64,000 nucleotides of DNA from assembly GCA_000004695.1 (NCBI GenBank), contig CM000151.3:5088001-5152000 (forward strand), in the 5' to 3' direction. Made by a program: the position numbers and the translations under genes. Under the pieces are notes generated by a model. That model was not told where the DNA came from. It saw only the letters and a program-made list of their open reading frames with translations, and made no database searches. Origin of the DNA: Dictyostelium discoideum. Lineage: Eukaryota. Positions within the stretch are counted from its first letter, which is position 1. The number at the start of each line of letters is the position of its first letter. This document shows, piece after piece, positions 8,698 to 53,930 of this stretch.

Positions 8698-11600
8698 TTA
8701 AGGCTTTAATAAATTAGTTGACTCGCCATTAGTTTCGTCATCTTCTTCGTCATCACTACTTTCATCTTCATCAAAATCGTCACTATCATCATAATAATTA
8801 TTATTTAATTCTTCAAAATTTGTTTTTGATTCTTCTTCTAAAATTTTTTCAATTTCTTTTACATTATTATTATTATTTTCATTATTTTCATTATTTTCAT
8901 TATTATTTTCAATATTATTTTCATTATTATTATTAATTTTTGATTTTTTTACAATTTTATCAGTTCTTGATTGTTTTTTATCTTTTTTTGAAAAAATTCC
9001 ACTATCTCTTGAGAAATCATCATCATTATAGATATGATCTTGATTATAGAGGAAATAAGAGTTTGAACCAAAGAGAGTAGTATTTGAATTCTTTCTACCT
9101 TTTTTACCTCTTGAAATGATGTAAAGGTAATGTTGAAGTGAATCAATGATTTGATAACGATAGTTTGAATAGAGGATATAGACAGCATGTAAAAAGAAGA
9201 TAATTGAACTTGAGATTACAATCCATTGTTCAATCGATTGATAGACTGTATTATCGAGATAAACACAACAAATAAAAAGAAGTGATAATGAAGTGAGCTC
9301 TAATCTATTATCAGAGATACGTTTAAATGGTTGATATTTAAGTTGAAGTAATACAGATACTAAACTGACCACTACCAATAGGAAAGATCTTGCTGCCGAT
9401 GTTGGATCCATAGTTGACATTAAAATGATTAACAATCTACGAAGTAATAAAATTACATCCCAAAAGTAAAATGAACTCTTATACTTTAATATAAATACAC
9501 CATAGGTACGTTGAGTGTGTGGGTCATCCAATGATTTACGATTTAAGAATAATAAAATCATAAGAATCAATGGGAAACCAATAATAACAATCAATAGACA
9601 ATAACTGACCATCAATGCTTTATGATATTGGTCAGTATAACAACTAACACCATTATTGGCAATTAACACATAAGCGGATACCCCAACATTTTCACAAAAG
9701 AATAATTCAAATGTTGCTTTACCAATTGGTGTATAAATATTAAGCATTAACTTTATAAATGCACCCAATTGTTGACTAAGGAATGTTTGATTACTTGGTA
9801 TAGCGGTTGCATTATCAATTAGAGTAACTTGTGAACTTAAACTACCAGAGATTGAGGTTTCGATTGATTTACCAAGTATTGAATGTTTTCCACCATCTGC
9901 AATTGTTGAATAACCATCACGAGATAAATCACCATCATTTGTAGTTGTATTAGTAGAATCAAAAGAATCATCATCATCATTTTCTAATAATGGTTGTTGT
10001 TGTTGTTGTTGTTTTCTTAATAAAGATTTTCTTTCTAAACTTTTTTGTAATGATGAATTATTGATTGTACCAGGATCTGATGTAACTATAATTGAAGAAT
10101 AATTTGAAATTGATTTACTTTTTTCAATATCTTCTTGTTCTTTAATGATTTTATTCTTTAATTTTTGAATTAATTTATATCTATAGACTATATAGAAAAA
10201 AACCGTTGAAATAAGTAATACAACAATTAACCATGGAGCTGAAAGTAAGGTGAAATAATGTTGTTGATAATAATCGAATGGACCAGGACAAATACCAAAA
10301 ATACTTGATGAGCCACCTGGTTGAAATTCAAGATTTAGTAAAGCCAAGAAATTGAATTTAACACCAGTTGAAAGTACCATAAGAGTTTGTGCGAAATAAA
10401 TGATAACTGTCATAAGACCAGATTCTGAATCAGAACTTTGTACCAATACGATCATACCAATAGATACTGCAACGATGGCAATGAATAGAATGGGCGATGT
10501 TTTATCACATCTTTTACAACCTTCACCCCAATCATAATAACCAGGATCACATTGAGCACATAATGGACCAAAACTATATGGGGCACACATATCAGATGTA
10601 TTACTACCAATACAATTTACATTTGGACATTCATATAAAACATAGGGTTTATCAGTTTGATTGACATCATACCACCAACCTTCGAATTGATTCACTTTAG
10701 CACCACCTGGACAATAGGCATGAATTGATGGACATTGAACACAGGTTTCACCATTGTAACCATAGGAACCAGTACGACATTCAGTACATTCAATCTTTGT
10801 AGTGGATGGAATTTGACCAGGACTGCATTTCAATACATTACTTACAGTTTGATTCACTGGTAAATTTGGGTTATTACTAAGGAATTCAACATCAACTGTT
10901 GTATTGATCGGACCATAGAGAGTTGTATTTGAAAAAATGGCAATACCATTATAGGTTGAGGTGGAATCAATTGTATTACCAGAAATTTGAAGGAAAATTT
11001 TCACTTCAAAACCAGATACGATTTGACCTTCTTCATCTTTGATATAGATTCTACCAGAGTATGTATCTTGACCTGATCTGAAACTTGAGGGGAAAGGATC
11101 CTCTACATCGATAAGAGCAGCATCGGTTGCAGTATTATTTCCATAGGAAGCAGTATTACCAGAGAAAATGGCATTATTCTTTATGGTTGGACCTGGTGTA
11201 CTACTATAGAAAATAACACCACCACCTCCACTTGCAGAATTATTCTGATAGATACCTCCATCTATGGTAATTAAATTACCAGCGATAGTGGTTGAGATCA
11301 CACCACCTTGTTTAGCGAAATTTCCAATGGCTGTACAATTATCCAATACCACTGAGGAGAATGTAAATATACAACCACCTAAAATACCTGGTGAACGATT
11401 ATTTTGAAAGAGAACATTTTTAAAAGTTGATGTACTACCTTCATATTGTGTAAGAATAGAATTTGTAGAGGTATTTGAAAAATTATCAATAAATTTGGAA
11501 TTGATAACGGTTAAATTCGATTGACTAAGTAAATTTATAATTGTATCTGTATTTGATGAGAAAACACTATTTTCAATTAAAACATTTGAAAGTGGACTAA

Positions 11601-13646
11601 TCATAAGGAATTGAGTGATTGAATTTTCAATTAATGAACCAACAATATGAATCTTTGAGAAAGAAGAATAGAAAAATCCATTTAGATTTGAAAATATTGA
11701 ATCTATAATCTCAACTTGACAATCTTGGAATACATGACTTCCAATGGAAATGTCATCAAATAGTGTCGAGGAAATACTAATTACAGTTTGAGTTGCATAG
11801 AATGAACCTTTAGAATTGGTGATATTTGAATCGAATAATTTAAAACTACCAAAGAATAAATAGATGGTATAATCATTACTTGTATTATAAATGGATGATT
11901 GTGATAATACTAAATCACTATCGGATGAAGAAATTAATGAATTTGTTATACCAATATTTCTTATGATAGTGTTGAAAATATTCACTTTTGATAATTCCAT
12001 AGCGAAAATTGCTGCACCAATATTACCATTTGAATCTTCAATAACTACATTTTGAATGGTAACACTTGAACCTTGACTAATATAAATATTACCACCTGGT
12101 CCACTTTTTAAATTATTTCCTTGGAAATTGGTATTGGAAATATTTGAAGTACTACTGATAATACATAATGCACCATTATTAATACCACCGATATCGCAAT
12201 TGTTAATGGTAGATGATTGTGTACGAGAAAGCATAATTGAGCATAAACTTGCCCCTTCAATTGGTTCAATACCTTGAATATTACTATCTTGCATATTAAA
12301 ATCACTAGTTTCATCCACTAATATATTATATAGATTCTCTGTCATTGTACAATTTACCAATGAAATGGTTGGTGAACCACCAAAACCCAACATTGATATT
12401 GCTGGTCCAAAACTTGCAACTTTAGAACATGAACAATTTTGTACCAAAGTATTCTCTAAAATTAATGCTGCATTACCTCTTGCTGAAATACTACCCCTAT
12501 TTTGACTATCTGCATTACTTGTAAATATACAATTTGAAAAACTTGCAACAACATTTCCCTCTATAAATAATGCTGCTCCACCTGGTGAATTATCTGATGA
12601 ATATGCATATCCAACTGTAATACCTTTAACATTTATATTAATACTTTTTGAATCTGGTGATGATGAACTATCACTACCACTTTCACTACCACTACTACTA
12701 CTACTACTACTACTATCACCACCACTACTACCACCACTACCACTAATTGATGAAGTTATTAAATTTGAAGAGATATCAAAGTAAGATTCCATTTGTCTAA
12801 ATCTTCCTCTTCTTGATGGTGATGTTAAAAATAAATCTTGTGGTTGATTTGAATAAGAAATTTTAAATAAATTTAATTGATATTCACCGGATAGAATACA
12901 TTTAGTTGGATCACCACTTTGTGAAATAATATTGATTGAACGTGAAATTGGTAAGTATGAAGCCAAATTACAATAAGTACCATCTGCTAAATAAATGGTT
13001 CCATTAAAATCCACTGAATTTAATGCTTGTTGAATTGTTGAGAATGGTGCAACTGAAGTACCATTACCATATTTATCGGAACCTTTTGCAACATCAACAT
13101 AAACTTCTTCTGGCATTGTAGCTGCTGGTTTTCTAATGATTACAGAACCAATTCTAAAACCACTTTGTGATGTACCACCACCACCACCACCACCACCTCC
13201 ATTATTAGTGTATGATGTTGTAAATGCGATATTCACTGTTGATGGTAAAAATGATTCCAACGGAACACGTTCAAGATCACCTAATAATAAATTACCATTG
13301 TAGGATGCAACGGGTCTATTATCGACATAAACATTCAATACTGGATTAATATTAGTTTCAAATTGACTACTAAGGAAATATTCTAAATAATATTGTTCAT
13401 TTGGTAGAATTGGTGGTAAACTAACTGTTTGCCATAATGTACTGGTTTGAGTATTTGGATCACTTTCGTTATATAAAAATTGAGCATAATAATAACCTGC
13501 TAATGAATAGGCTGATGAGCCACACATATCATCTGTACAAAAACTAACTGAACTAGTTGCTTTCCATGGTGATGTTGCACTAATATTTGGATGTGAACTT
13601 GCAATTACTGAAAATCCCCAATCACCAACAATTGGTTCTTCCATTT
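8698..13646 (-). CDS. large (about 1686 aa) secreted/multipass membrane glycoprotein: N-terminal globular region, Gly9 run, Ser-rich linker, many right-handed beta-helix (PbH1/pectin-lyase-like) repeats, Cys-rich EGF/laminin-like module, about 10 TM helices, acidic Asn/Glu-rich C-terminal tail
   Basis: One uninterrupted ORF of 1648 codons. Repeated N/S/T/I/G-rich segments of about 22 residues (..NCIFTSNADSQNRGSISARGNAALILENTLVQNCS..) are typical of parallel beta-helix. CTECRTGSYGYNGETCVQCPS...CAQCDPGYYDWGEGCKRC is a Cys-rich module. Hydrophobic helices: ILFIAIVAVSIGMIVLV, LMTVIIYFAQTLMVL, WLIVVLLISTVFFYIVY, ALMVSYCLLIVIIGFPLILMILLFL, SFLLVVVSLVSVLL, WIVISSSIIFFLHAVYILY and others. Confidence 0.8.
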
Positions 13647-13784
13647 CTAAATTTAATTTTTTAATTTTTTTAACATTAATAAATAAAATTAAAAATTAAA
13701 AATTAAAAATAGAAAATTAAAAATAGAAAATTAAAAAATAAAAAATAAAAAATAAAAAATAAAAAATAAAAAATTAAAAATTAC

Positions 13785-13896
13785 CTGAACAAGTATATTG
13801 TGGTTGTTGTGAAAAAACAACATTTTCATTTAGTAATAATACAATTAACAAAAACAATGTTGTTATAAATTTTGGGTTTAAATTTCTTAAAATCAT
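13785..13896 (-). CDS. large beta-helix/EGF/multipass membrane protein, exon 1 of 2 (signal peptide MILRNLNPKFITTLFLLIVLLLNENVVFSQQPQYTCS)
   Basis: ATG at 13896 on the minus strand. Hydrophobic signal peptide. Donor GTAA (plus-strand 13781-13784), 138-nt A-rich intron, acceptor AG (plus-strand ct, 13647-13648). Phase 1 joins in frame to the long ORF 8698..13644. Confidence 0.55.
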
Positions 13897-14095
13897 TTTT
13901 TTTTTTTTATTTTTTGATTTTTATTTTTTATTTTTTGTATATCCGGGAAAAAAAAAAAAAAAAAAATTAAAAATAATAAAAAAAATTAAATAATTATTTT
14001 ATTATTTTAAATATTGTAGTTTTTAAAACTACTAGAGATAGTTTTTTGGTCAACCTATTGTTTTAAATAGATATGTTTTAAAGTATTGTTTAATT

Positions 14096-14137
<42 letters not shown>

Positions 14138-14248
14138 GGTTGAGTTTTTCGCAATCAGAAAAAAAAAAAAATAAAATAAAAATAAAAAAAATAAAAATAA
14201 AAATAAAATGCTTATTAAATTTTCGAGTGAATACATTCACTTGGTCTC

Positions 14249-14296
<48 letters not shown>

Positions 14297-14750
14297 ACTA
14301 AATTTTAAAATTTTGGCAAATAATTATTTTAAAAATTGATGATTCTTATTTAAATCTAATAAATAAAATCATTGAAAAAGGGTTAACAAAAATAGAAATG
14401 AAATAAAAACAAAGGGTCACTATATTGAAACCGACCAAAAATGTGTTAATTCCAAGAAAATTCAATGTTATTTTAAAAAATTTTATTCAATTTTTTTTTT
14501 TTTTATTTTTAATTTTTTTTTTTTTTTTTTATTTTTTTTATTTTTTTTTTGAAAATATTTTCATTCAAAAATAACTCTTTTATATTTTTATTTATTAAAA
14601 TATACACACATACATATATAAACGGTTAAACAAATAATTTTATTTGTATTTTATTTGTAATATAAATTTTTATTTAATTTTTAATTTTATTTTTTTAAAT
14701 AGTAGTAGTAGCAAAAACAATAATAATAATAATAATAATAAAATAACAAA

Positions 14751-14826
14751 ATGTCTCAAAGGGAATGGACAACAGCATCTACAAGCGATTTAATGTCGAA
14801 TTTATTAAACAATCATAATTCAAATA

Positions 14827-14875
<49 letters not shown>

Positions 14876-14886
14876 TAACAATAATG

Positions 14887-14943
<57 letters not shown>

Positions 14944-16000
14944 GCAATAACCAACCATTATTAAGAAATGCAAGTACAAATATCTTTTTTGGTGACGACT
15001 GGACTAAACAGAATACAGTTGGTTTATTATTAGACCCGTTAAATAGAGGTACAAGTTTTTCAAATTTATTAAAATCACCAACAATATTAGGTGATACACA
15101 ACAATCACAACAACCACAATCTCAACACACCATGCAACAATTATTTGCAAATGACCCAACATATCAACAACATCAACAAGAACAAGAACAACAACATCAA
15201 ATGATGGGAAATACAACATCACCAAAATCATTTAACCCATATGTTGGTTTATCACAACCAATGATTGTAACTAATACTGGTAATTTTAATACAACAACAA
15301 CTACTACAACTACATCAAATAATAATAATAATAATAACAATAACAATAACAATAGTAATAATAACAACAATAATAATAGTATGAATATTAATGCAAATAC
15401 ATATGAAGATGGTGAAGATGAACCAAAAACACCACCAACACCATCAAATGAACCAATTAATTGGGATATGCCAAATTATAGACAAAATACAGCATCATTC
15501 CATGCAGATATTAATATTAACAACACTACAAATTCACACCCAACTACATTATCATCGATGATGAAGAATGAAATACCAACATATAGCGGTCAAGTATCAA
15601 ATGAATATGAACAACCAACTAAATTCCAAAGAATTTCAACCTACAACGAAGAATCATTAAATGATAGACTTAGAGGCGATAACACAGGTAGCATTAATTT
15701 CTTACAAGCTGAAACATCTAAACTCAGATCACGTCAATCCTCACAAGATGATCTCGAAAGAAATAGATCATTCCAAATGACTCATTACGACACTGGTTGT
15801 GTACCAATCAGTACAGATTATTATAATAGTCTATTAACACGTTACAATAATAGACCCGAATTCTTTGAGCGTGCAAAAGAAAATCAAATTCAAGTTATCA
15901 ATAATAATAATGTTCAATTAGCTATTGATCTTCAAAATATTTATACTTCAATGAAAAAAGATATTGATGAAGAAAATAATGAATTAAAAAATTTATTAAC
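14751..16000 (+). CDS. STAT-family transcription factor (Dictyostelium dst paralog, identity not resolved), exon 1 of 2
   Basis: ATG at 14751. Long poly-Asn and Gln-rich N-terminal region. GTATGT donor at 16001. The track ORF ends artefactually in the intron poly-A. Confidence 0.75.
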
Positions 16001-16003
16001 GTA

Positions 16004-16036
<33 letters not shown>

Positions 16037-16090
16037 AAATTAAATATTCAAATATTTATTATTATTATTTTTTATTTTTTTTATTTTTAG

Positions 16091-22972: not shown

Positions 22973-25900
22973 CATTTGAAGATGCAAATATTAAACCATC
23001 AACATTACGTGGATCAGATACAGCAGTATTTATTGGTATGATGAATCTTGATTATCAAAGATGTCAATTCAGAGATATATCATATATTAATCCGTATACA
23101 GTTACTGGTAGTGCAGGATCATTTGTATCAAATCGTTTAAGTTTTAGTTTTGATTTACGTGGTCCATCAATGACACTTGATACAGCATGTTCATCATCAT
23201 TGAATGCAGTTTATCTTGGTTGTCAAGCTATTGCAACTGGTGATAGTAAGATGGCAATTGTTGGTGGTGTCAATGGTATTTTCGATCCAAGTATTTCAAT
23301 GACATTCTCTGGATTAAATATGTTGGGACACAAAGGTCAATGTAGATCATTCGATGCTGGTGCTGATGGTTACATCCGTAGTGAAGGTGGTGGTGTTTGT
23401 ATCCTAAAGAAATATTCAGATGCAATTAAAGATGGTGACCGTATTTATTGTGTTATCAAAGGTGGTAGTTCAAATGTTGATGGATACAATGCAAAGACCA
23501 ATATCACTCAACCATCAATGAAGGCTCAAGGTGAAAACATTGAAATTGCTTTAAAGAAATCTGGTGTAAATCCATCAGATATCTATTATATAGAAGCTCA
23601 TGGTACTGGTACACCAGTTGGTGATCCGATTGAAATTGAAGCAATATCAAGAATATTCAAAGATAATCATACACCCGATGCTCCATTGTACATTGGTTCA
23701 GTTAAAAGCAACATTGGTCATCTTGAAAGTGCTGCCGGTATTGCATCATTAATCAAAGTTGCACTCTCTTTAAAAAATCGTTCATTGGTTCCAAATATTC
23801 ATTTTGAAAAACCAAATCCATTAATCAAATTCGAAGATTGGAATATTCGTGTAGTCACTGATGAAATCCAGTTCCCAACCAATAAATTAATTAATATGGG
23901 TATTAATTGTTTTGGTCTATCTGGTTCAAATTGTCATATGATTCTAAGTGAAGCACCAATTAATTATGATGAATTATTGAAAACAACAAATAATAACTCT
24001 ACATCCTCTTCTTCAAATGATGATAAAAAAGAATATTTAATACCATTTTCAGCAAACTGTAATATTTCATTAGATAAATATATAGAGAAATTAATTTCAA
24101 ACCAATCTATTTATAAAGATACAATATTATTTAAAGATTTTGTAAAACATCAAACAATTTCAAAATCAAATTTAATAAAGAGAAAAGTTATAACCGCTTC
24201 CGATTGGGATGACTTTTTAAATAAAAGAAATGAAACTACATCAACTTCATCATTGACTTCAACAATTTCAGCACCAGCTTCATCAACTCCAGTCATTTAT
24301 GTTTTCACCGGTCAAGGCCCACAATGGAGAGATATGGGTAAAGCATTATATGAAACTGAATCAGTATTTAAAGATGCCATTGATCATTGTGATAAATTAC
24401 TTGCTAATTATTTTGGATATTCAATACTCCAAAAGTTACGTTCATTAGAAAGTGATGATTCACCAGAAATTCATCATCCAATTTTAGCACAACCAAGTAT
24501 TTTCTTAATTCAAGTTGGTTTAGTCGCACTTTATAAATCATTTGGTATTTCACCATCAATTGTAGTTGGTCATAGTTTTGGTGAAGTTTCATCCGCTTTA
24601 TTCTCTGGTGTCATCAGTTTAGAAACTGCTGTTAAAATCGTTTACTATAGAGGCTTAGCTCAAAATTTAACAATGGGAACTGGTAGATTATTATCAATTG
24701 GTATCGGTGCTGATGCTTATCTTGAAAAATGTGCTTTATTATATCCAGAAATTGAAATAGCTTGTTATAATGATCCAAATTCAATTGTTATTACTGGTTC
24801 TGAACAAGATTTGTTAGGTGCTAAATCAACACTATCAGCTGAAGGTGTTTTTTGTGCTTTCTTAGGTACACCATGTTCTTTCCACTCATCAAAACAAGAA
24901 ATGATTAAAGAAAAGATATTCAAAGATTTATCAGATTTACCAGAATCAAATGTACCATGTGTACCATTCTTTTCAACAATTACTGGTTCACAATTATCTC
25001 ATAAAGGTTTCTACAATGTTCAATACATTTATGATAATTTACGTATGCCTGTTGAATTCACCAAAGCCATTTCAAACATTTTCAATTTCATTGAAGAAAA
25101 TGAATCATACAAGAATGCAATCTTTTTAGAGATTGGTCCTCATCCAACTTTAGGTTTTTATATTCCAAAATGTAAACCATCAAATTCAACAATAACTTCA
25201 AAACCAATTATAGTATCACCATTACATAAAAAGAAAGAAGAATTAACACAATTTAAATTAGCAATTTCAACTCTATATTGTAATGGTGTTGAAATTGATT
25301 TTGCAAGTGGTCAACAATTATTACCAACTTCTTCTTCATCCGGAGGTGGCGATATATCATCATTTAAAGAGTCGACAAATAAATTACCAAGATACCAATG
25401 GGATTTTGAAGAATATTGGGATGAACCAAACCAAAGTAAAATGGTAAAACGTGGTCCATCAAATAATTTATTAGGTCATGATCAATTTGCAGGTAATACT
25501 TTAATGGAATTATTTATTGATATTAATAAATCTGCTCATCAATATCTAAAAGGTCATAAAATTAAAGGTAAATATCTTTTCCCAGGTTCTGGTTATATTG
25601 ATAATATTCTTCGTCAATTCAATGGTCAAGATATTACCATTTTCAATTTAGAATTTTCAAATCCATTCTTTTTGAAAGATGGTGTTCAACATCATTTACA
25701 AACTTCAATTACACCAACTACCAAGGGTGAATTTAAAGTTGAATTCTTTATAAAGGATAATAGAAACTCAACTAAATGGACTAAAACTTCAAATGGTCGT
25801 ATTGGATTATTCAAACATAATCCAAAGAATAATAAATTGGATATTGAAAAACTTAAAAGTCAATGTTCATTTACCACCCTTACAAAGTCTGAAGTTTACA

Positions 25901-28900
25901 ATAAGCTATTGTTATTAAGTTTACCATATGGTCCAACTTTCCAAAGAGTTGAATCATGTTCAATTGGTGATGGATGTTCATTCTTTAAACTTTCAATGTC
26001 ACCTTGTTCAGAGTTTGACAAAGATTTCTTAAATCCTTCAATTATTGATTGTGCATTCCATGGTTTATTAGTACTCAGTGAAGGTCCACAAGAGATTGTT
26101 TTCGATCGTTTACAAGATATGAAATTCTATTCTTCAAATGTACCTTCAACAAGACCTCAATTCATTTATGCCTTTGCTAAATTCGATAAAATTGTAGGAA
26201 ATTCAACTCATGGTTCTCTAGATATCATGTTAGAAGATGGTACATTATTAATTTCAATTAAAAATGTTAAATGTACATCATTAATACGTTTAAAGAAACA
26301 ATCAATTAAATATCCTTCACAAAATGTTTATTCACACCATTGGCAATCAAAAGATTCACCATTAACTTTAATTGAAAATCAATTAATTGAAGAGAAATCA
26401 TCAGAATCTAAAATTAATTTTGAAAAATTATTAAATGATAAATTATTTAATGATTATTTAATTAGATTATTAAACCAATCAATTAAATCTGAATTTATAG
26501 AATTCGATTATAAAACTTCAACAGTAGATACTTTAGAAATTGATTCAAATAATACAAAACTATTAGAAAAGATTCAATCAATTTTAAAAACAATTGATTC
26601 ATTAGATCAATCAATTGATTTAGCTAGTTTAAAACAAGTAATTATTGAAAAATCATCATCATTTAAAAAAGAAATTAATTTAATTGAAAAATCAATCAAA
26701 CGTATTGTTTCATTATTAAAAGGTGGTGAAAGTGAACATTTTTCACCAAGTAATCCAAGTTCACCAAATGACACACCAAGATATAATTCAAACAATTGTT
26801 CTTCAAAGAGTAATAATACCTCTAGTGGTGCTGATGATGATACTAACAATGAAGAAACAATTAATCAATTAAATAATGAACCATTTAATTTCTCAAATTC
26901 TCAATTCATTTCAAATCAAAATCAATTAATTTCAAAAACAATTGTAAATTCATTTGATAGATTAATTAATTCGATTGAAATTGGCGAAAAGAAATTAATT
27001 AAAATAATTGATTTATCAAGTATCTATCAAAATAATCAACTTTCAAAATTATTATTATTACAATTAAATCAATTACTAATTAATTTATCAAATAATAATA
27101 ATATTGAAATTGAATATACAATTCCATCAAATACCAAAAATATTGATTCAATTAAAGAAGAAACTAAATCGATTTCAAATTTATTAAATATTAAATATCG
27201 TAGTTTTGATTTACAAGATGATTTAGAAAGTAATGGTTATTTAAATTCAAATTATGATTTAATTATAACTTCTTTATTATTAGTTTCAACAAACTCAATT
27301 GATTCAAATGAAGTTTTATCAAAACTTTATAAATTATTATTACCAAAAGGTCAATTAATTTTAATGGAACCACCAAAGGATGTATTATCATTCAATCTTT
27401 TATTTGCAAATGATTTCAAACAATCATTAGAAATTAAAAGTGAACAAGAAATTAAATCATTAATTAGATATTGTGGTTTCACTAAAATTGAAACAAATAA
27501 TATTACCCAAGATGATGAAGAAGAACAACAACAACCACCATCAATTTTAATAGTTCAAACTGAAAAGAGAGATATTGAATCAATGTCATTGACTTTCTCA
27601 TCAGATCCAGAATCATTAAATTCTTCATATAGTAATTGTATATTCATAGTTTCAAAAGAACAAAAAGAAAATCCAACTTCATATATTCAAGAATATTTTG
27701 ATATTACTGAAGTATTCTGTGATAACACTACAATTATTGAAGCTGGTGATAGTGAATTATTAACAAAGACAATTGAATCAGGTATTGGTAAAAATGATAT
27801 TATTTTCTTTTTAGTTTCACTTGAAGAATTAACAATTGAAAATTATAAACAAGTTACAATGCAATATACATTAGTTAATCAAATACTTTTAAGAAATAAT
27901 CTTTCAACTAGATTTGCTTTATTAACTTACGATTCTCAAAATGGTGGTAAAAATTATTTAGGATCATCATTAATTGGTACTTTTAGATACTTTTTAGAAT
28001 TTCCATCATTGAATACCTTTTCAATTGATGTCGATAAAGATTCAATTGATAATCTTACATTATTCTTACGTTTAGTTGATCTATCTACAATTGGTGATAG
28101 AGAAACTATTGTTAGAAATAATAAAATTTTTGTTCAAAAGATTTTCAAAGAGCCAAAATTGTTATCACCATCAAATAATTACGAAAAGGATACAAATAAT
28201 TTATATTTGAATACAAATAGTAATTTAGATTTTTCATTCCAATGCAAAGAGAAATTACCACATGGTTCCGTCGAAATTAAAGTTATGTCAACTGGTATCA
28301 ACTATAAAGATAATCTTTTCTATAGAGGTTTATTACCACAAGAAATCTTTACAAAAGGTGATATTTATTCTCCACCATTCGGTTTAGAATGTGCTGGTTA
28401 TATTACACGTGTTGCACCAAGTGGCGTTACTCGTTTCAAAGTTGGTGATCAAGTTGTTGGTTTTGCAAGCCATTCTTTAAGTTCACTAGCTATTACTCAT
28501 CAAGATAAAATTGTATTAAAACCTGAAAATATTTCATTCAATGAAGCTGCTGCCGTTTGTGTAGTTTATGCAACAAGTTATTATTCAATTTTCCATATTG
28601 GTGCATTTATGGCCGATAAAGAATCAATCCTAGTTCATTCTGCAACTGGTGGTGTTGGTTTAGCAACTTTAAATCTTTTAAAATGGAAGAGAAATCAATT
28701 GAAAAAACATGGCAACTCTGAAATTAGTAATGATGCTTCAATTTATGCTACAGTGGGTTCTAAAGAAAAAGTCGATTATTTACAAGAGAAATATGGTGAT
28801 TTAATAACTGCAATTTACAATAGTAGAGATACTGAATATTGCGATGAAATTAAACAACAATCAGCACAAGGAGGTGTAGATTTAATTTTAAATACACTCT

Positions 28901-30465
28901 CTGGTGATTATTTATCTGCAAATTTCCGTTCACTTTCCCAAGTTGGTAGAATTATGGATTTATCAGTCACTCAATTGGTTGAAAATGATTCATTAGATTT
29001 TTCAAACTTTAAGTATCATGTTACTTACAGTACAATCGATTTAGAAAGAGCTACAACATATAATTCAAAAATCGTTAGAGATATCCTCACAGAAGTATTT
29101 GATGCAATTTCTGATGGTAGTCTTGAAAATATTCCAGTTAAAGTTTTCCCAGCAACTCAAGTTAAAACTGCGATTGAATATATTAATGAACGTGTTCATA
29201 TTGGTAAAATTGTAGTTGATTTTGAAAACTTTGAACAAGATATTCTTAAACCAGCTTTACAAGAGAAAGAAAATCCAATTCAATTGAATAAAGTTAAAAA
29301 ATTGGAACATACTTGTGATACTTTAAATAATACAATTTTAATCACTGGTCAAACTGGTATTGCTGTTCATATTTTAAAATGGATTATTTCTGGTTCTGTT
29401 TTAAATTCAAATAAATCACAACAACAAGTAACAGATTTCATAATTTTATCAAGATCATCATTAAAATGGGAACTTGAAAATTTAATTAATCAAACTAAAC
29501 ATAAATATGGTGATAGATTTAGATTCCATTATAAATCTGTAAATATTGCAGATTTAAATTCAACTCGTACTGCAATTGATCAAGTTTATTCAAGTTGTAA
29601 AAATGTTTCACCAATTAAATCAGTATTACATTTTGCAACAGTTTATGAATACATTTTACCAGAAGATATCACTCAAACCGTAATTGATAATACTCATAAT
29701 CCAAAAGCAGTCGGTGCAATTAATTTACATAATCTTTCAATTGAAAAAGATTGGAAATTAGAAAACTTTATTCTCTTTTCATCAATTGGTGCTATCATTG
29801 GTGGTTCAAAACAATGTGCATATAGTAGTGCTAATTTAGTATTGGATTCATTATCAAACTATAGAAAGAGTATTGGTCTTGCTTCAACTTCAATTAATTG
29901 GGGTGGTTTGGATGCTGGTGGTGTTGCCGCCACTGATAAATCAGTCGCAAGTTTCTTAGAGGGTCAAGGTATTTTATTGGTTTCTTTATCAAAGATTTTA
30001 GGTTGTCTTGATTCAGTTTTCCAACCATCTAATTCCCATTTATCAAACTTTATGCTTTCAAGTTTCAATATTGATAATCTTTTATCTTCTGCACCTCAAA
30101 TGAAGAGAAAAATGGGTCACCACCTAACAAATTATAAAACTTCATCTGCTAGCTCTGATGATTCATTGGGTGATTCTAGTTCTACTCAAGCAAAAGTCAT
30201 TTCTACAATCTCTGAATTATTATCAATTCATCCATCAAAATTAAATTTAGATACAAGATTAAAAGACTATGGTATTGATTCTTTATTAACAGTACAATTA
30301 AAGAATTGGATAGATAAAGAATTTACAAAGAATTTATTCACTCATTTACAATTATCATCAAGTAGTATTAATAGTATCATTCAGAGAATTAGTTCAAAAT
30401 CAACTTCAACATCTACTCCCAATCCAACTAACACCACAAAACAAACCGCAACAACAAAAACATAA
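22973..30465 (+). CDS. polyketide synthase copy A, exon 2 of 2 (about 2603 aa total): KS-AT-DH-(degenerate MT-like)-ER-KR-ACP, no C-terminal release domain
   Basis: Acceptor AG at 22971-22972. KS active-site [85 protein letters not shown] plus [19 protein letters not shown]. Contains track ORF 23038..30465. Confidence 0.9.
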
Positions 30466-46434: not shown

Positions 46435-49400
46435 TTATGTTTTTTTTGTTGCGGTTTGTTTTGAGGTGTTAGTTGGATTGGGAGTAGATGTTGAAGTTGA
46501 TTTTGAACTAATTCTCTGAATGATACTATTAATACTACTTGATGATAATTGTAAATGAGTGAATAAATTCTTTGTAAATTCTTTATCTATCCAATTCTTT
46601 AATTGTACTGTTAATAAAGAATCAATACCATAGTCTTTTAATCTTGTATCTAAATTTAATTTTGATGGATGAATTGATAATAATTCAGAGATTGTAGAAA
46701 TGACTTTTGCTTGAGTAGAACCAGAATCACCCAATGAATCATCAGAACTAGCAGATGAAGTTTTATAATTTGTTAGGTGGTGATCCATTTTTCTCTTCAT
46801 TTGAGGTGCAGAAGATAAAAGATTATCAATATTGAAACTTGAAAGCATAAAGTTTGATAAATGGGAATTAGATGGTTGGAAAACTGAATCAAGACAACCT
46901 AAAATCTTTGATAAAGAAACCAATAAAATACCTTGACCCTCTAAGAAACTTGCGACTGATTTATCAGTGGCGGCAACACCACCAGCATCCAAACCACCCC
47001 AATTAATTGAAGTTGAAGCAAGACCAATACTCTTTCTATAGTTTGATAATGAATCCAATACTAAATTAGCACTACTATATGCACATTGTTTTGAACCACC
47101 AATGATGGCACCAATTGATGAAAAGAGAATAAAGTTTTCTAATTTCCAATCTTTTTCAATTGAAAGATTATGTAAATTAATTGCACCGACTGCTTTTGGA
47201 TTATGAGTATTATCAATTACGGTTTGAGTGATATTTTCTGGTAAAATGTATTCATAAACTGTTGCAAAATGTAATACTGATTTAATTGGTGAAACATTTT
47301 TACAACTTGAATAAACTTGATCAATTGCAGTACGAGTTGAATTTAAATCTGCAATATTTACAGATTTATAATGGAATCTAAATCTATCACCATATTTATG
47401 TTTAGTTTGATTAATTAAATTTTCAAGTTCCCATTTTAATGATGATCTTGATAAAATTATGAAATCTGTTACTTGTTGTTGTGATTTATTTGAATTTAAA
47501 ACAGAACCAGAAATAATCCATTTTAAAATATGAACAGCAATACCAGTTTGACCAGTGATTAAAATTGTATTATTTAAAGTATCACAAGTATGTTCCAATT
47601 TTTTAACTTTATTCAATTGAATTGGATTTTCTTTCTCTTGTAAAGCTGGTTTAAGAATATCTTGTTCAAAGTTTTCAAAATCAACTACAATTTTACCAAT
47701 ATGAACACGTTCATTAATATATTCAATCGCAGTTTTAACTTGAATTGCTGGGAAAACTTTAACTGGAATATTTTCAAGACTACCATCAGAAATTGCATCA
47801 AATACTTCTGTGAGGATATCTCTAATAATTTTTGAATTATATTTCGTAGCTCTATCTAAATCTATTGTATTGTAGCCAACATGATACTTAAAGTTTGAAA
47901 AATCTAATGAATCATTTTCAACCAATTGAGTGACTGATAAATCCATAATTCTACCAACTTGGGAAAGTGAACGGAAATTTGAAGATAAATAATCACCAGA
48001 GAGTGTATTTAAAATTAAATCTACACCTCCTTGTGCTGATTGTTGTTTAATTTCATCGCAATATTCAGTATCTCTACTATTGTAAATTGCAGTTATTAAA
48101 TCACCATATTTCTCTTGTAAATAATCGATTTTTTCTTTGGAACCCACTGTAGCATAAATTGAAGCATCATTACTAATTTCAGAGTTGCCATGTTTTTTCA
48201 ATTGATTTCTCTTCCATTTTAAAAGATTTAAACTTGCTAAACCAACACCACCAGTTGCAGAATGAACTAGGATTGATTCTTTATCGGCAATAAAAGCACC
48301 AATATGGAAAATTGAATAATAACTTGTTGCATAAACTACACAAACGGCAGCAGCTTCATTGAATGAAATATTTTCAGGTTTTAATACAATTTTATTTTGA
48401 TGAGTTGTAACATGTGAACTTAAAGAATGGCTTGCAAAACCAACAACTTGATCACCAACTTTGAAACGAGTAACGCCACTTGGTGCAACACGTGTAATAT
48501 AACCAGCACATTCTAAACCGAATGGTGGAGAATAAATATCACCTTTTGAAAAGACTTCTTGTGGTAATAAACCTCTATAGAAAAGACTATCTTTATAATT
48601 GATACCAGTTGACATAACTTTAATTTCGACGCAACCATGCAGTAATTTCTCTTTGCTTTGGAATGAAAAATCTAAATTACTATTTGAATACAAGAATAAA
48701 TTATTTGTATTCTTTTCATAATTATTTGATGGTGATAACAATTTTGGCTCTTTGAAAATCTTTTGAACAAAAATTTTATTATTTCTAACAATAGTTTCTC
48801 TATCACCAATTGTAGATAGATCAACTAAACGTAAGAATAATGTAAGATTATCAATTGAATCTTTATCTACATCAATTGAAAAGATATTCAATGACCGAAA
48901 TTCTAAAAAGTATCTAAAAGTACCAATTAATGATGATCCTAAATAATTTTTACCACCATTTTGAGAATCGTAAGTTAATAAAGCAAATCTAGTTGAAAGA
49001 TTATTTCTTAAAAGTATTTGATTAACTAATGTATATTGCATTGTAACTTGTTTATAATTTTCAATTGTTAATTCTTCAAGTGAAACTAAAAAGAAAATAA
49101 TATCATTTTTACCAACACCTGATTCAATTGTCTTTGTTAATAATTCACTATCATCAGCTTCAATAATTGTTGCATTTTGACAGAAAAATTCAGTAATATC
49201 AAAATATTCTTGAATATATGAAGTTGGATTTTCTTTTTGTTCTTTTGAAACTATGAATATACAATTACTATATGATGAATTTAATGATTTTGGATCAGAT
49301 GAGAAAGTTAATGACATTGATTCAATATCTCTCTTTTCAGCTTGAACTATTAAAATTGATGGAGGAGGTGGTTGTTGTTGTTCTTCATCATCTTTAGTAT

Positions 49401-52400
49401 TAAGATTTGTTTCAATTTTAGTGAAACCACAATATATAATTAATGATTTAATTTCTTGTTCACTTTTAATTTCTAATGATTGTTTGAAATCATTTGCAAA
49501 TAAAAGATTGAATGATAATACACCCTTTGGTGGTTCCATTAAAATTAATTGACCTTTTGGTAATAATAATTTATAAAGTTTTGATAAAACTTCATTTGAA
49601 TCAATTGAGTTTGTTGAAACTAATAATAAAGAAGTTATAATTAAATCATAATTTGAATTTAAATAACCATTACTCTCTAAATCATCTTGTAAATCAAAAC
49701 TACGATATTTAATATTTAATACATTTGAAATCGATTTAGTTTCTTCTGTAATTGAATCAATATTTTTGGTATTTGATGGAATTGTATATTCAATTTCAAT
49801 ATTATTATTATTTGATAAATTAATTAGTAATTGATTTAATTGTAATAATAATAATTTTGAAAGTTGATAATTTTGATAGATACTTGATAAATCAATTATT
49901 TTAATTAATTTCTTTTCGCCAATTTCAATTGAATTAATTAATCTATCAAATGAATTTACAATTGTTTTTGAAATTAATTGATTTTGATTTGAAATGAATT
50001 GAGAATTTGAGAAATTAAATGGTTCATTATTTAATTGATTAATTGTTTCTTCATTATTAGTATCATCATCAGCATCGTCAGAAGAGGCAGCATTATTCTT
50101 TGAAGAACAATTGTTTGAATTATTTCTTGGTGTATCATTTGGTGAACTTGGGTTACTTGGTGAAAAATGTTCACTTTCACCACCTTTTAATAATGAAACA
50201 ATACGTTTGATTGATTTTTCAACTAATTTAATTTCATTTTTAAATGATGATTTTACAATAATTGCTTGTTTTAAACTAGTTATATCAATTGATTGATCTA
50301 ATGAGTCTATTGGGTTTAAAATTGATTGAATCTTTTCTAATAGTTTTGCATTTTTTGAACCAATATCTAAAGTATCTACTGTTGAAGTTTTATAATCGAA
50401 TTCTATAAATTCAGATTTTATTGATTGGTTTAATAATCTAATTAAATAATAATTAAATAATTTATCATTTAATAATTTTTCAAAATTAATTTTAGATTCT
50501 GATGATTTCTCTTCAATTAATTGATTTTCAATTAAAGTTAATGGTGAATCTTTTGATTGCCAATGGTGTGAATAAACATTTTGTGAAGGATATTTAATTG
50601 ATTGTTTCTTTAAACGTATTAATGATGTACATTTAACATTTTTAATTGAAATTAATAATGTACCATCTTCTAATATGATATTAAGAGAACCATGAGTAGA
50701 ATTACCTTCAATTTTATCGAATTTAGCAAAGGCATAAATGAATTGAGGTCTTGTTGAAGGTACATTTGAAGAATAGAATTTCATATCTTGTAAACGATCG
50801 AAAACAATCTCTTGTGGACCTTCACTGAGTACTAATAAACCATGGAATGCACAATCAATAATTGAAGGATTTAAGAAATCTTTGTCAAACTCTGAACAAG
50901 GTGACATTGAAAGTTTAAAGAATGAACATCCATCACCAATTGAACATGATTCAACTCTTTGGAAAGTTGGACCATATGGTAAACTTAATAACAATAGCTT
51001 ATTGTAAACTTCAGACTTTGTAAGGGTGGTAAATGAACATTGACTTTTAAGTTTTTCAATATCCAATTTATTATTCTTTGGATTATGTTTGAATAATCCA
51101 ATACGACCATTTGAAGTTTTAGTCCATTTAGTTGAGTTTCTATTATCCTTTATAAAGAATTCAACTTTAAATTCACCCTTGGTAGTTGGTGTAATTGAAG
51201 TTTGTAAATGATGTTGAACACCATCTTTCAAAAAGAATGGATTTGAAAATTCTAAATTGAAAATGGTAATATCTTGACCATTGAATTGACGAAGAATATT
51301 ATCAATATAACCAGAACCCGGGAAAAGATATTTACCTTTAATTTTATGACCTTTTAGATATTGATGAGCAGATTTATCAATATCAATAAATAATTCCATT
51401 AAAGTATTACCTGCAAATTGATCATGACCTAATAAATTATTTGATGGACCACGTTTTACCATTTTACTTTGGTTTGGTTCATCCCAATATTCCTCAAAAT
51501 CCCATTGGTATCTTGGTAATTTATTTGTTGATTCTTTAAATGATGATATATCGCCACCTCCGGATGAAGAAGAAGTTGGTAATAATTGTTGACCACTTGC
51601 AAAATCAATTTCAACACCATTACAATATAGAGTTGAAATTGCTAATTTAAATTGTGTTAATTCTTCTTTCTTTTTATGTAATGGTGATACTATAATTGGT
51701 TTTGAAGTTATTGTTGAATTTGATGGTTTACATTTTGGAATGTAAAAACCTAAAGTTGGATGAGGACCAATCTCTAAAAAGATTGCATTCTTGTATGATT
51801 CATTTTCTTCAATGAAATTGAAAATGTTTGAAATGGCTTTGGTGAATTCAACAGGCATACGTAAATTATCATAAATGTATTGAACATTGTAGAAACCTTT
51901 ATGAGATAATTGTGAACCAGTAATTGTTGAAAAGAATGGTACACATGGTACATTTGATTCTGGTAAATCTGATAAATCTTTGAATATCTTTTCTTTAATC
52001 ATTTCTTGTTTTGATGAGTGGAAAGAACATGGTGTACCTAAGAAAGCACAAAAAACACCTTCAGCTGATAGTGTCGATTTAGCACCTAGCAAATCTTGTT
52101 CAGAACCAGTAATAACAATTGAATTTGGATCATTATAACAAGCTATTTCAATTTCTGGATATAATAAAGCACATTTTTCAAGATAAGCATCAGCACCGAT
52201 ACCAATTGATAATAATCTACCAGTTCCCATTGTTAAATTTTGAGCTAAGCCTCTATAGTAAACGATTTTAACAGCAGTTTCTAAACTGATGACATCAGAG
52301 AATAAAGCGGATGGAATTTCACCAAAACTATGACCAACTACAATTGATGGTGAAATACCAAATGATTTATAAAGTGCGACTAAACCAACTTGAATTAAGA

Positions 52401-53930
52401 AAATACTTGGTTGTGCTAAAATTGGATGATGAATTTCTGGTGAATCTTCACTTTCTAATGAAAGTAACTTTTGGAGTATAGAATATCCAAAATAATTAGC
52501 AAGTAATTTATCACAATGATCAATGGCATCTTTAAATACTGATTCAGTTTCATATAATGCTTTACCCATATCTCTCCATTGTGGGCCTTGACCAGTGAAA
52601 ACATAAATGACTGGAGTTGATGAAGCTGGTGCTGAAATTGTTGAAGTCAATGATGAAGTTGATGTAGTTTCATTTCTTTTATTTAAAAAGTCATCCCAAT
52701 CGGAAGCTGTTATAACTTTTCTCTTTATTAAATTTGATTTTGAAATTGTTTGATGTTTTACAAAATCTTTAAATAATATTGTATCTTTATAAATAGATTG
52801 GTTTGAAATTAATTTCTCTATATATTTATCTAATGAAATATTACAATTTGCTGAAAATGGTATTAAATATTCTTTTTTATCATCATTTGAAGAAGAGGAT
52901 GTAGAGTTATTATTTGTTGTTTTCAATAATTCATCATAATTAATTGGTGCTTCACTTAGAATCATATGACAATTTGAACCAGATAGACCAAAACAATTAA
53001 TACCCATATTAATTAATTTATTGATTGGGAACTGGATTTCATCAGTGACTACACGAATATTCCAATCTTCGAATTTGATTAATGGATTTGGTTTTTCAAA
53101 ATGAATATTTGGAACTAATGAACGATTTTTTAAAGAGAGTGCAACTTTGATTAATGATGCAATACCGGCAGCACTTTCAAGATGACCAATGTTGCTTTTA
53201 ACTGAACCAATGTACAATGGAGCATCGGGTGTATGATTATCTTTGAATATTCTTGATATTGCTTCAATTTCAATCGGATCACCAACTGGTGTACCAGTAC
53301 CATGAGCTTCTATATAATAGATATCTGATGGGTTTACACCAGATTTCTTTAAAGCAATTTCAATGTTTTCACCTTGAGCCTTCATTGATGGTTGAATGAT
53401 ATTGGTCTTTGCATTGTATCCATCAACATTTGAACTACCACCTTTGATAACACAATAAATACGGTCACCATCTTTAATTGCATCTGAATATTTCTTTAGG
53501 ATACAAACACCACCACCTTCACTACGAATGTAACCATCAGCACCAGCATCGAATGATCTACATTGACCTTTATGTCCTAACATATTTAATCCAGAGAATG
53601 TCATTGAAAAACATGGATCGAAAATACCATTGACACCACCAACAATTGCCATCTTACTATCACCATTTGCAATGGCTTGGCAACCAAGATAAACTGCGTT
53701 CAATGATGATGAACATGCTGTATCAAGTGTCATTGATGGGCCACGTAAATCAAAACTAAAACTTAAACGATTTGATATAAATGATCCTGCAGTACCAGGA
53801 GTTATATAAGGATTCACATATGATATATCTCTGAATTGACATCTTTGATAATCAGTATTCATCATACCAATAAATACTGCTGTATCTGATCCACGAAATG
53901 TTGATGGTTTAATATTTGCATCTTCAAATG
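46435..53930 (-). CDS. polyketide synthase copy B, exon 2 of 2 (about 2604 aa total), near-identical inverted paralog of copy A
   Basis: Track ORF 46435..53865 extended to acceptor AG (plus-strand ct, 53931-53932). Same KS-AT-DH-MT-like-ER-KR-ACP order. About 95-97% aa identity to copy A, with differences such as [15 protein letters not shown] versus [15 protein letters not shown] and a 1-aa indel. Confidence 0.9.

Follow-up and report, generated by a model that had tools for sequence, protein, structure and literature searches.

Which protein does the minus strand encode at positions 8698-13896 of a 64,000-nucleotide stretch of the Dictyostelium discoideum genome (contig CM000151.3, positions 5,088,001 to 5,152,000; hereafter the window), where a beta-helix ectodomain appears to be fused to a polytopic membrane domain, and what might that protein do? 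The region is a two-exon D. discoideum gene that is already annotated. Its spliced product is identical at 1686 of 1686 residues to the AX4 protein XP_643780.1 / EAL69813.1 / UniProt Q86I19, which the databases describe as a "transmembrane protein" of chromosome 2. A first-pass annotation had therefore re-derived the reference gene model, and it missed both the existing entry and the published homology of Q86I19 to the cysteine repeat modular proteins, or CRMPs (PMC9815656). Profile comparisons place Q86I19 in the CRMP family. By analogy with better-studied members, we consider it likely that Q86I19 is a surface receptor whose ectodomain binds a ligand, most likely a glycan, and whose nine-helix core signals.

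Kinship of Q86I19 to the CRMPs is already in print, and its architecture is neither rare nor new. Singer et al. 2023 list three D. discoideum proteins, Q86I19 among them, as homologues of CRMPs, and the predicted nine-transmembrane (nine-TM) regions of these proteins resemble those of PfCRMP2 and TgCRMPA/B (PMC9815656). Taking the TgCRMPA and TgCRMPB core sequences from S2 Table of that report, we compared them with a profile of the loop-trimmed family core (A6). The hhalign alignment to the TgCRMPA core covered 348 columns (probability 99.8%, E 4.9e-28) and began within the membrane-proximal Cys-rich module, and the TgCRMPB core aligned with a probability of 98.4% (E 6.3e-15). Scores from hmmsearch were 163.6 and 87.7 bits for the TgCRMPA and TgCRMPB cores, respectively, and phmmer matched the Q86I19 core to TgCRMPA at 40 bits. 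On sequence grounds, Q86I19 is a CRMP family member with a core homologous to that of Toxoplasma CRMPA/CRMPB. D. discoideum also encodes a paralogue of 1468 aa, DDB_G0284913 (Q54NY8). Literature searches for DDB_G0284913, DUF7630, PTHR11319, and cryo-electron microscopy or channel studies of CRMPs returned nothing past two CRMP papers of 2022-23.

Domain layout agrees with this assignment in several respects. Like Toxoplasma CRMPA/CRMPB, Plasmodium CRMP1-4 and Tetrahymena CRMP1/2, Q86I19 combines a signal peptide with a large modular ectodomain, places a membrane-proximal Cys-rich module (EGF-like / DUF7630 in those proteins, DUF7630-like in Q86I19) directly before a nine-helix core, and is predicted to end in a cytoplasmic C-terminus; the Fig 1 legend of PMC9815656 also describes parallel beta-helix repeats in some apicomplexan members. 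Q86I19 differs from those proteins in its ectodomain, where a CBM-like jelly roll is followed by a long beta-helix and an immunoglobulin (Ig)-like domain and Kringle, MAR and C-type lectin domains are lacking, and in carrying a long low-complexity cytoplasmic loop. Our Pfam scans, which took in 26 full-length and 39 shorter relatives, bear on the Cys-rich module. DUF7630 (PF24633) matched TgCRMPA at 64.6 bits. With E<=0.01 as the limit it was found in 8 of 14 family cores, and at E<=0.001 in 12 of 39 further relatives; by profile match it is the membrane-proximal Cys-rich module of CRMPs. A DUF7631 match appeared once. The corresponding stalk of Q86I19 contains 13 conserved Cys within aa 978-1084. 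It had been described as an EGF/laminin-like cassette; the Cys-rich character stands, but no bona fide EGF or laminin module was found, with PF00053 reaching 9.9 bits against a cut-off of 21. The cassette has more in common with ephrin-receptor or TNFR-type cysteine-rich domains and with the CRMP DUF7630 module.

An AlphaFold2 (AF2) model of stalk and core (aa 978-1556; 23-sequence alignment; predicted local distance difference test, or pLDDT, 76.9; predicted template modelling score, or pTM, 0.71) contains nine membrane-length helices, where about ten had been counted before. A 19-residue hydropathy window with a threshold of 1.6 flags seven of the nine and misses TM4 and TM8. The TM1-TM3 region includes the invariant Gln1124 and an extracellular loop with Cys1157, and two invariant Cys (Cys1355 and Cys1373) sit in an extracellular beta-hairpin modelled between TM4 and TM5. 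Two family motifs, YG...Y...W(D/E)V..L.RR and QPF...DN.LE, fall within the TM4-TM9 region, the YG motif in a short amphipathic helix of the model. Invariant polar or helix-breaking residues of the core comprise Gln1124 (TM2), Pro1396 (TM5), Trp1433 and Arg1440 (TM6), followed past TM7 by Pro1477, Asn1484 and Glu1487, and these are candidates for a functional site. Segments rich in Lys and Arg follow TM3, TM5, TM7 and TM9. Because of the signal peptide, the odd number of TM helices and the K/R-rich loops (positive-inside rule), the protein fits an N-out, C-in topology in which the low-complexity loop and the tail would be cytoplasmic. The loop is absent in its entirety from the orthologue P0003, as judged from alignment gaps, and the tail is strongly acidic and Asn-rich, as first described (36 D/E versus 19 K/R). 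Among solved structures, none resembling the nine-helix core was found, and searching PDB sequences with either the ectodomain or the core profile gave nothing meaningful.

The same core could be read as more than a scaffold. If it were itself an ion-conducting channel of the Flc/Pkd2 type, the protein would be ligand- or force-gated and calcium-permeable rather than a scaffold receptor. Of the polytopic-membrane families in Pfam, only PF06011 ("TRP"), that of the fungal Flc/Pkd2 "TRP-like" channels, recurs among the relatives: at E<=1e-3 it matched 4 of 26 and 15 of 39, or 19 of the 65 scanned relatives (best E 7e-13), and 3 of 14 family cores, with some matches above the cut-off, such as Ostreobium P0006 at 49.8 bits against 28.5. 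Q86I19 matches over TM6-TM8 (profile positions 271-354) at 18.9 bits and E 7e-4, which is under Pfam's curated cut-off of 28.5, and the TgCRMPA and TgCRMPB cores gave no PF06011 match at E<=1. Fission-yeast Pkd2 has a comparable layout of signal peptide, ectodomain, nine TM helices and disordered cytoplasmic tail (10.1101/2022.08.11.503631), and the reconstituted protein passes calcium on membrane stretch (PMC9727806). The fungal PF06011 proteins (S. pombe Pkd2, Trp663 and Trp1322; S. cerevisiae Flc1-3) share with Q86I19 the signal peptide, extracellular N-terminal domain, nine TM helices and disordered tail; their ectodomain, in contrast, is a small Ig-like/ML-like lipid-binding domain, and they have no Cys-rich stalk. 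No pore or selectivity motif was identified in the core of Q86I19, and the evidence that PF06011 proteins act as channels comes from limited reconstitution data. A superfamily link between Q86I19 or its relatives and the PF06011 proteins is plausible from the profile matches; channel function of the core is speculative, and we regard a channel in place of a scaffold receptor as doubtful.

A broader proposal follows the same line of thought, namely that the CRMP nine-helix core, that of Q86I19 included, is an ancient, pan-eukaryotic relative of the calcium-permeable, mechanosensitive Flc/Pkd2 proteins, turning ligand binding or pulling on the long ectodomain directly into a calcium signal. We offer it tentatively and think it unlikely as it stands. 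If true, it would provide the step that is missing in alveolates between contact with the host and exocytosis of rhoptries or mucocysts, and Dictyostelium would become a tractable model for that step. The Pkd2/Flc link could thereby bear on CRMP signalling in apicomplexan invasion.

PANTHER-based annotation has pointed elsewhere, to a divergent adhesion-type G-protein-coupled receptor (GPCR) in the cases of TgCRMPA and PfCRMP1. Sparvoli et al. report a GPCR-like PANTHER prediction for CRMPa and draw the analogy to adhesion GPCRs (PMC9670195), and Q86I19 does resemble that class in joining a large adhesive ectodomain to a polytopic, presumably signalling, domain with a cytoplasmic tail. However, the AF2 model of Q86I19 has nine helices rather than seven, neither a 7TM Pfam family nor a structural match to one was found, no GAIN domain was detected, and there is no sequence or structural similarity to adhesion GPCRs. 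The GPCR reading of Q86I19 is disfavoured, and we would assign it a very small chance of being correct.

Returning to the CRMP-type receptor, we modelled its ectodomain (aa 30-985; 17 homologues; mean pLDDT 81.8; pTM 0.73). A globular N-terminal region followed by a Gly9 run had been proposed. Both elements exist, but the run (aa 187-195; 13174-13200) forms a low-confidence loop ahead of the last strand of the jelly-roll domain and so lies inside the beta-sandwich, not after it. Foldseek matches this domain to TmCBM61 (target-normalised TM-score 0.59), CBM32 and MAM domains, and its IVGDWGF motif is kept in paralogues. The right-handed beta-helix that follows was likewise anticipated, with structure prediction named as its test, and the AF2 model shows a helix of three strands per turn; Beta_helix (PF13229) matches the protein at 34.5 bits, above the curated cut-off. 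The number of coils is about 24 rather than the 35 repeats first estimated. A Ser/Gly-rich insert (aa 305-369; 12652-12846) with pLDDT below 50 breaks the helix, and strand triplets and length give about 21 coils past it (some 508 residues at about 24 per coil) and about three ahead of it. This count was taken from the structure model and not from sequence periodicity, since hydrophobic autocorrelation over the region yielded a weak period-24 signal (0.088). The insert and the cytoplasmic loop (9793-10173) are both lineage-specific and predicted to be disordered. Between the beta-helix and the stalk, the Ig-like sandwich gave a weak MG4 match (E 0.005). The ectodomain as a whole contains 21 N-glycosylation sequons.

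Structurally, the beta-helix resembles both adhesin passengers and glycan-processing enzymes. Repeats of the type found in bacterial polymorphic membrane proteins, which the first-pass annotation had invoked, were not detected: Chlamydia Pmp repeats (PF02415) had no match in the protein at E<=1, and the P0003 orthologue reached 12 bits where the cut-off is 20.6. Matches to PF02415 do occur in more distant relatives. Compared with bacterial beta-helix adhesins (the autotransporter passengers Vag8, pertactin, UpaB and Hap, and Chlamydia Pmp), Q86I19 differs in its anchor, an alpha-helical nine-TM core rather than a beta-barrel, and in being a eukaryotic secretory-pathway protein with N-glycosylation sequons and without a detectable PF02415 repeat. 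The resemblance to glycan-processing enzymes raises the question of whether the protein could be a membrane-tethered carbohydrate-active enzyme, its beta-helix acting as a glycoside hydrolase (GH) or polysaccharide lyase (PL) on bacterial, cell-wall or matrix polysaccharide and its core serving as a mere anchor. Pfam detects only the generic Beta_helix and no GH or PL family at E<=1, and identity between the beta-helix and enzymes is 8-15%. The conserved nine-helix core with its invariant polar residues far exceeds what an anchor needs, and relatives replace the beta-helix by non-enzymatic binding modules. We therefore judge a tethered enzyme improbable.

The breadth of the family became clear from a profile of stalk plus core (A2), run against 1.84 billion representative proteins. 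At E<=1e-3 it hit 14,785 representative clusters, of which 5,337 reached E<=1e-10 and 224 reached E<=1e-30. The whole profile is spanned by nearly all of the 150 best matches, and the full-core family is smaller than 14,785 because the weakest matches may cover the Cys-rich part only. Word-indexed homologue searches with the family alignments gave two matches and one, probably because low-complexity or hydrophobic words saturated the candidates, so taxonomy was drawn from exact cluster look-ups. These returned dictyostelid relatives from Tieghemostelium, Heterostelium, Cavenderia, Polysphondylium, Synstelium and D. purpureum, and others from Gefionella (a malawimonad), Mantamonas, Anaeramoeba, Muranothrix (a ciliate) and Ostreobium (a green alga). 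Among the 26 and 39 scanned relatives, ectodomains included Beta_helix (11 and 2, respectively), Chlam_PMP (4 and 6) and Ephrin_rec_like (3 and 10), and Kelch, filamin, TIG and NCD3G ectodomains were found on the same core. With one shared core and such varied ectodomains, fusions of a beta-helix to a polytopic domain are common in protists, contrary to the earlier view of an uncommon architecture. By profile matching, this CRMP-type core occurs very widely across eukaryotes, joined to swappable ectodomains.

Three CRMP-like paralogues of Heterostelium album, P0009, P0010 and P0013 (EFA78123, EFA78115 and EFA78121), lie on one 2.26-Mb contig, and a tandem cluster is suggested by their accession numbers, which fall within a span of nine. 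PIN/NOB1 domains also occur in P0013, and the name given to P0010 is "Pol"; both look like fused or mis-called gene models.

What the CRMP assignment implies for function can be outlined from the better-studied members. Toxoplasma CRMPA and CRMPB form a complex with MIC15 and TSP1, have N-termini exposed outside the cell and are needed for rhoptry discharge, and in Tetrahymena mucocyst exocytosis depends on CRMP1/2 (PMC9815656, PMC9670195); a part in triggering regulated exocytosis is known for the proteins of these two organisms only. By analogy with these proteins, Q86I19 would reside in either the plasma membrane or that of a secretory compartment, where its variable ectodomain may bind an extracellular ligand. 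That ligand would most likely be a glycan carried by prey, by the matrix or by other cells, because the ectodomain combines a CBM-like domain with a beta-helix. The nine-helix core may then pair with a paralogue such as DDB_G0284913 and pass a signal to the cytoplasm, possibly setting off a secretory or calcium response. The role of cell-surface sensor or carbohydrate-binding receptor put forward in the first-pass annotation fits the CRMP proposals (PMC9670195, PMC9815656) and the CBM61/CBM32/MAM-like domain; the role itself we infer. Several observations weigh against a CRMP-type receptor. DUF7630 stays below threshold in Q86I19 itself (15.3 bits versus a cut-off of 27), no ligand-binding residues were identified, and the literature searched reported neither localisation nor expression of this gene, nor any mutant. 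Moreover, Dictyostelium is a free-living amoeba and has neither rhoptries nor mucocysts. Overall, we still regard a ligand-binding CRMP receptor as probable. The analysis describes an uncharacterised, receptor-like protein of Dictyostelium domain by domain and offers a modest entry point into CRMP biology.

The gene model that underlies this description is compiled below. The unspliced ORF (8698..13644, minus strand; 1648 aa) begins MEEPIVGDWGF and is without a signal peptide. The 112-nt upstream exon, its signal peptide and its in-frame splice across a 138-nt intron, as originally proposed, were borne out by complete identity of the product to Q86I19, and only the label "micro-exon" needs replacing, the exon being a short first exon instead. 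It opens with an ATG at 13896 and encodes MILRNLNPKFITTLFLLIVLLLNENVVFS followed by QQPQYTCS, contributes the opening base of codon 38 and ends at a GTAA donor. Charged, hydrophobic and small-residue (V-x-S) segments are laid out in the classical way in the predicted signal peptide (aa 1-29; 13810-13896), and hydrophobic leaders also start the paralogues from other dictyostelids. The exons join in frame (G|AA = Glu38) to give the 1686-aa product. The intron had been called A-rich, which holds on the plus strand only; the coding strand is T-rich (91 T, 42 A, 3 G and 2 C). At the orthologous locus of D. citrinum, exon 1 is kept with only in-frame indels (+3 and +6 nt) and the donor and acceptor positions are as in D. 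discoideum, whereas the intron measures 227 nt versus 138 nt, and the difference is not divisible by three. No second copy of the gene was found in the window by tblastn.

Table 1. Coordinates of the Q86I19 gene and of the predicted parts of its product, in order of transcription
Feature	Position in window	Strand	Residues	Description or basis
Exon 1	13785..13896	-		112 nt; start codon and signal peptide; N-terminus as in annotated Q86I19
Intron 1	13647..13784	-		138 nt, GT..AG (GTAA...TTTAG), 96% A+T; in-frame TAA directly past donor
Exon 2	8698..13646	-		Remaining coding sequence of 1686-aa protein; stop codon 8698-8700
N-terminal all-beta jelly-roll domain, CBM/MAM-like	13123..13641	-	~40-212	AF2 strands, Foldseek
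Right-handed parallel beta-helix	11119..13107	-	~218-880	~24 coils, three strands per turn
Ig-like beta-sandwich between beta-helix and Cys-rich stalk	10834..11118	-	~881-975	AF2 strands at 851-946 in the numbering of the model
Cys-rich stalk	10498..10827	-	978-1087	Ephrin-receptor/TNFR-like Cys-rich domain and DUF7630-like membrane-proximal module
TM1-TM3	10174..10497	-	1089-1108, 1115-1129, ~1170-1195	Hydropathy, AF2, invariant columns
Cytoplasmic low-complexity loop	9793..10173	-	~1196-1322	127 residues; pLDDT below 50
TM4-TM9	9115..9792	-	1323-1351, 1376-1405, 1433-1448, 1455-1475, 1481-1501, 1507-1548	AF2 pLDDT 80-96; hhalign to TgCRMPA and TgCRMPB; PF06011 match below cut-off
Cytoplasmic Asn/Asp/Glu-rich tail	8701..9114	-	~1549-1686	Composition

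The surrounding window is AT-rich (17-31% G+C) with poly-Asn coding tracts, as is typical of Dictyostelium. A divergent intergenic region (13897-14750) separates the minus-strand CRMP-like gene from a poly-Asn-rich ORF on the plus strand (14751-16043; 430 aa) and contains very long homopolymers, with about 50 T (minus-strand read) near 14250-14295 and other long T runs on the same strand. Farther along, two ORFs of 2475 and 2476 aa (23038-30465, plus strand; 46435-53865, minus strand) are type I highly reducing polyketide synthases (KS-AT-DH-ER-KR-ACP) that are 96% identical, inverted in orientation and ~16 kb apart. Both start inside the KS domain, at about position 140 of the 252 profile positions, and each is therefore expected to have an upstream exon.

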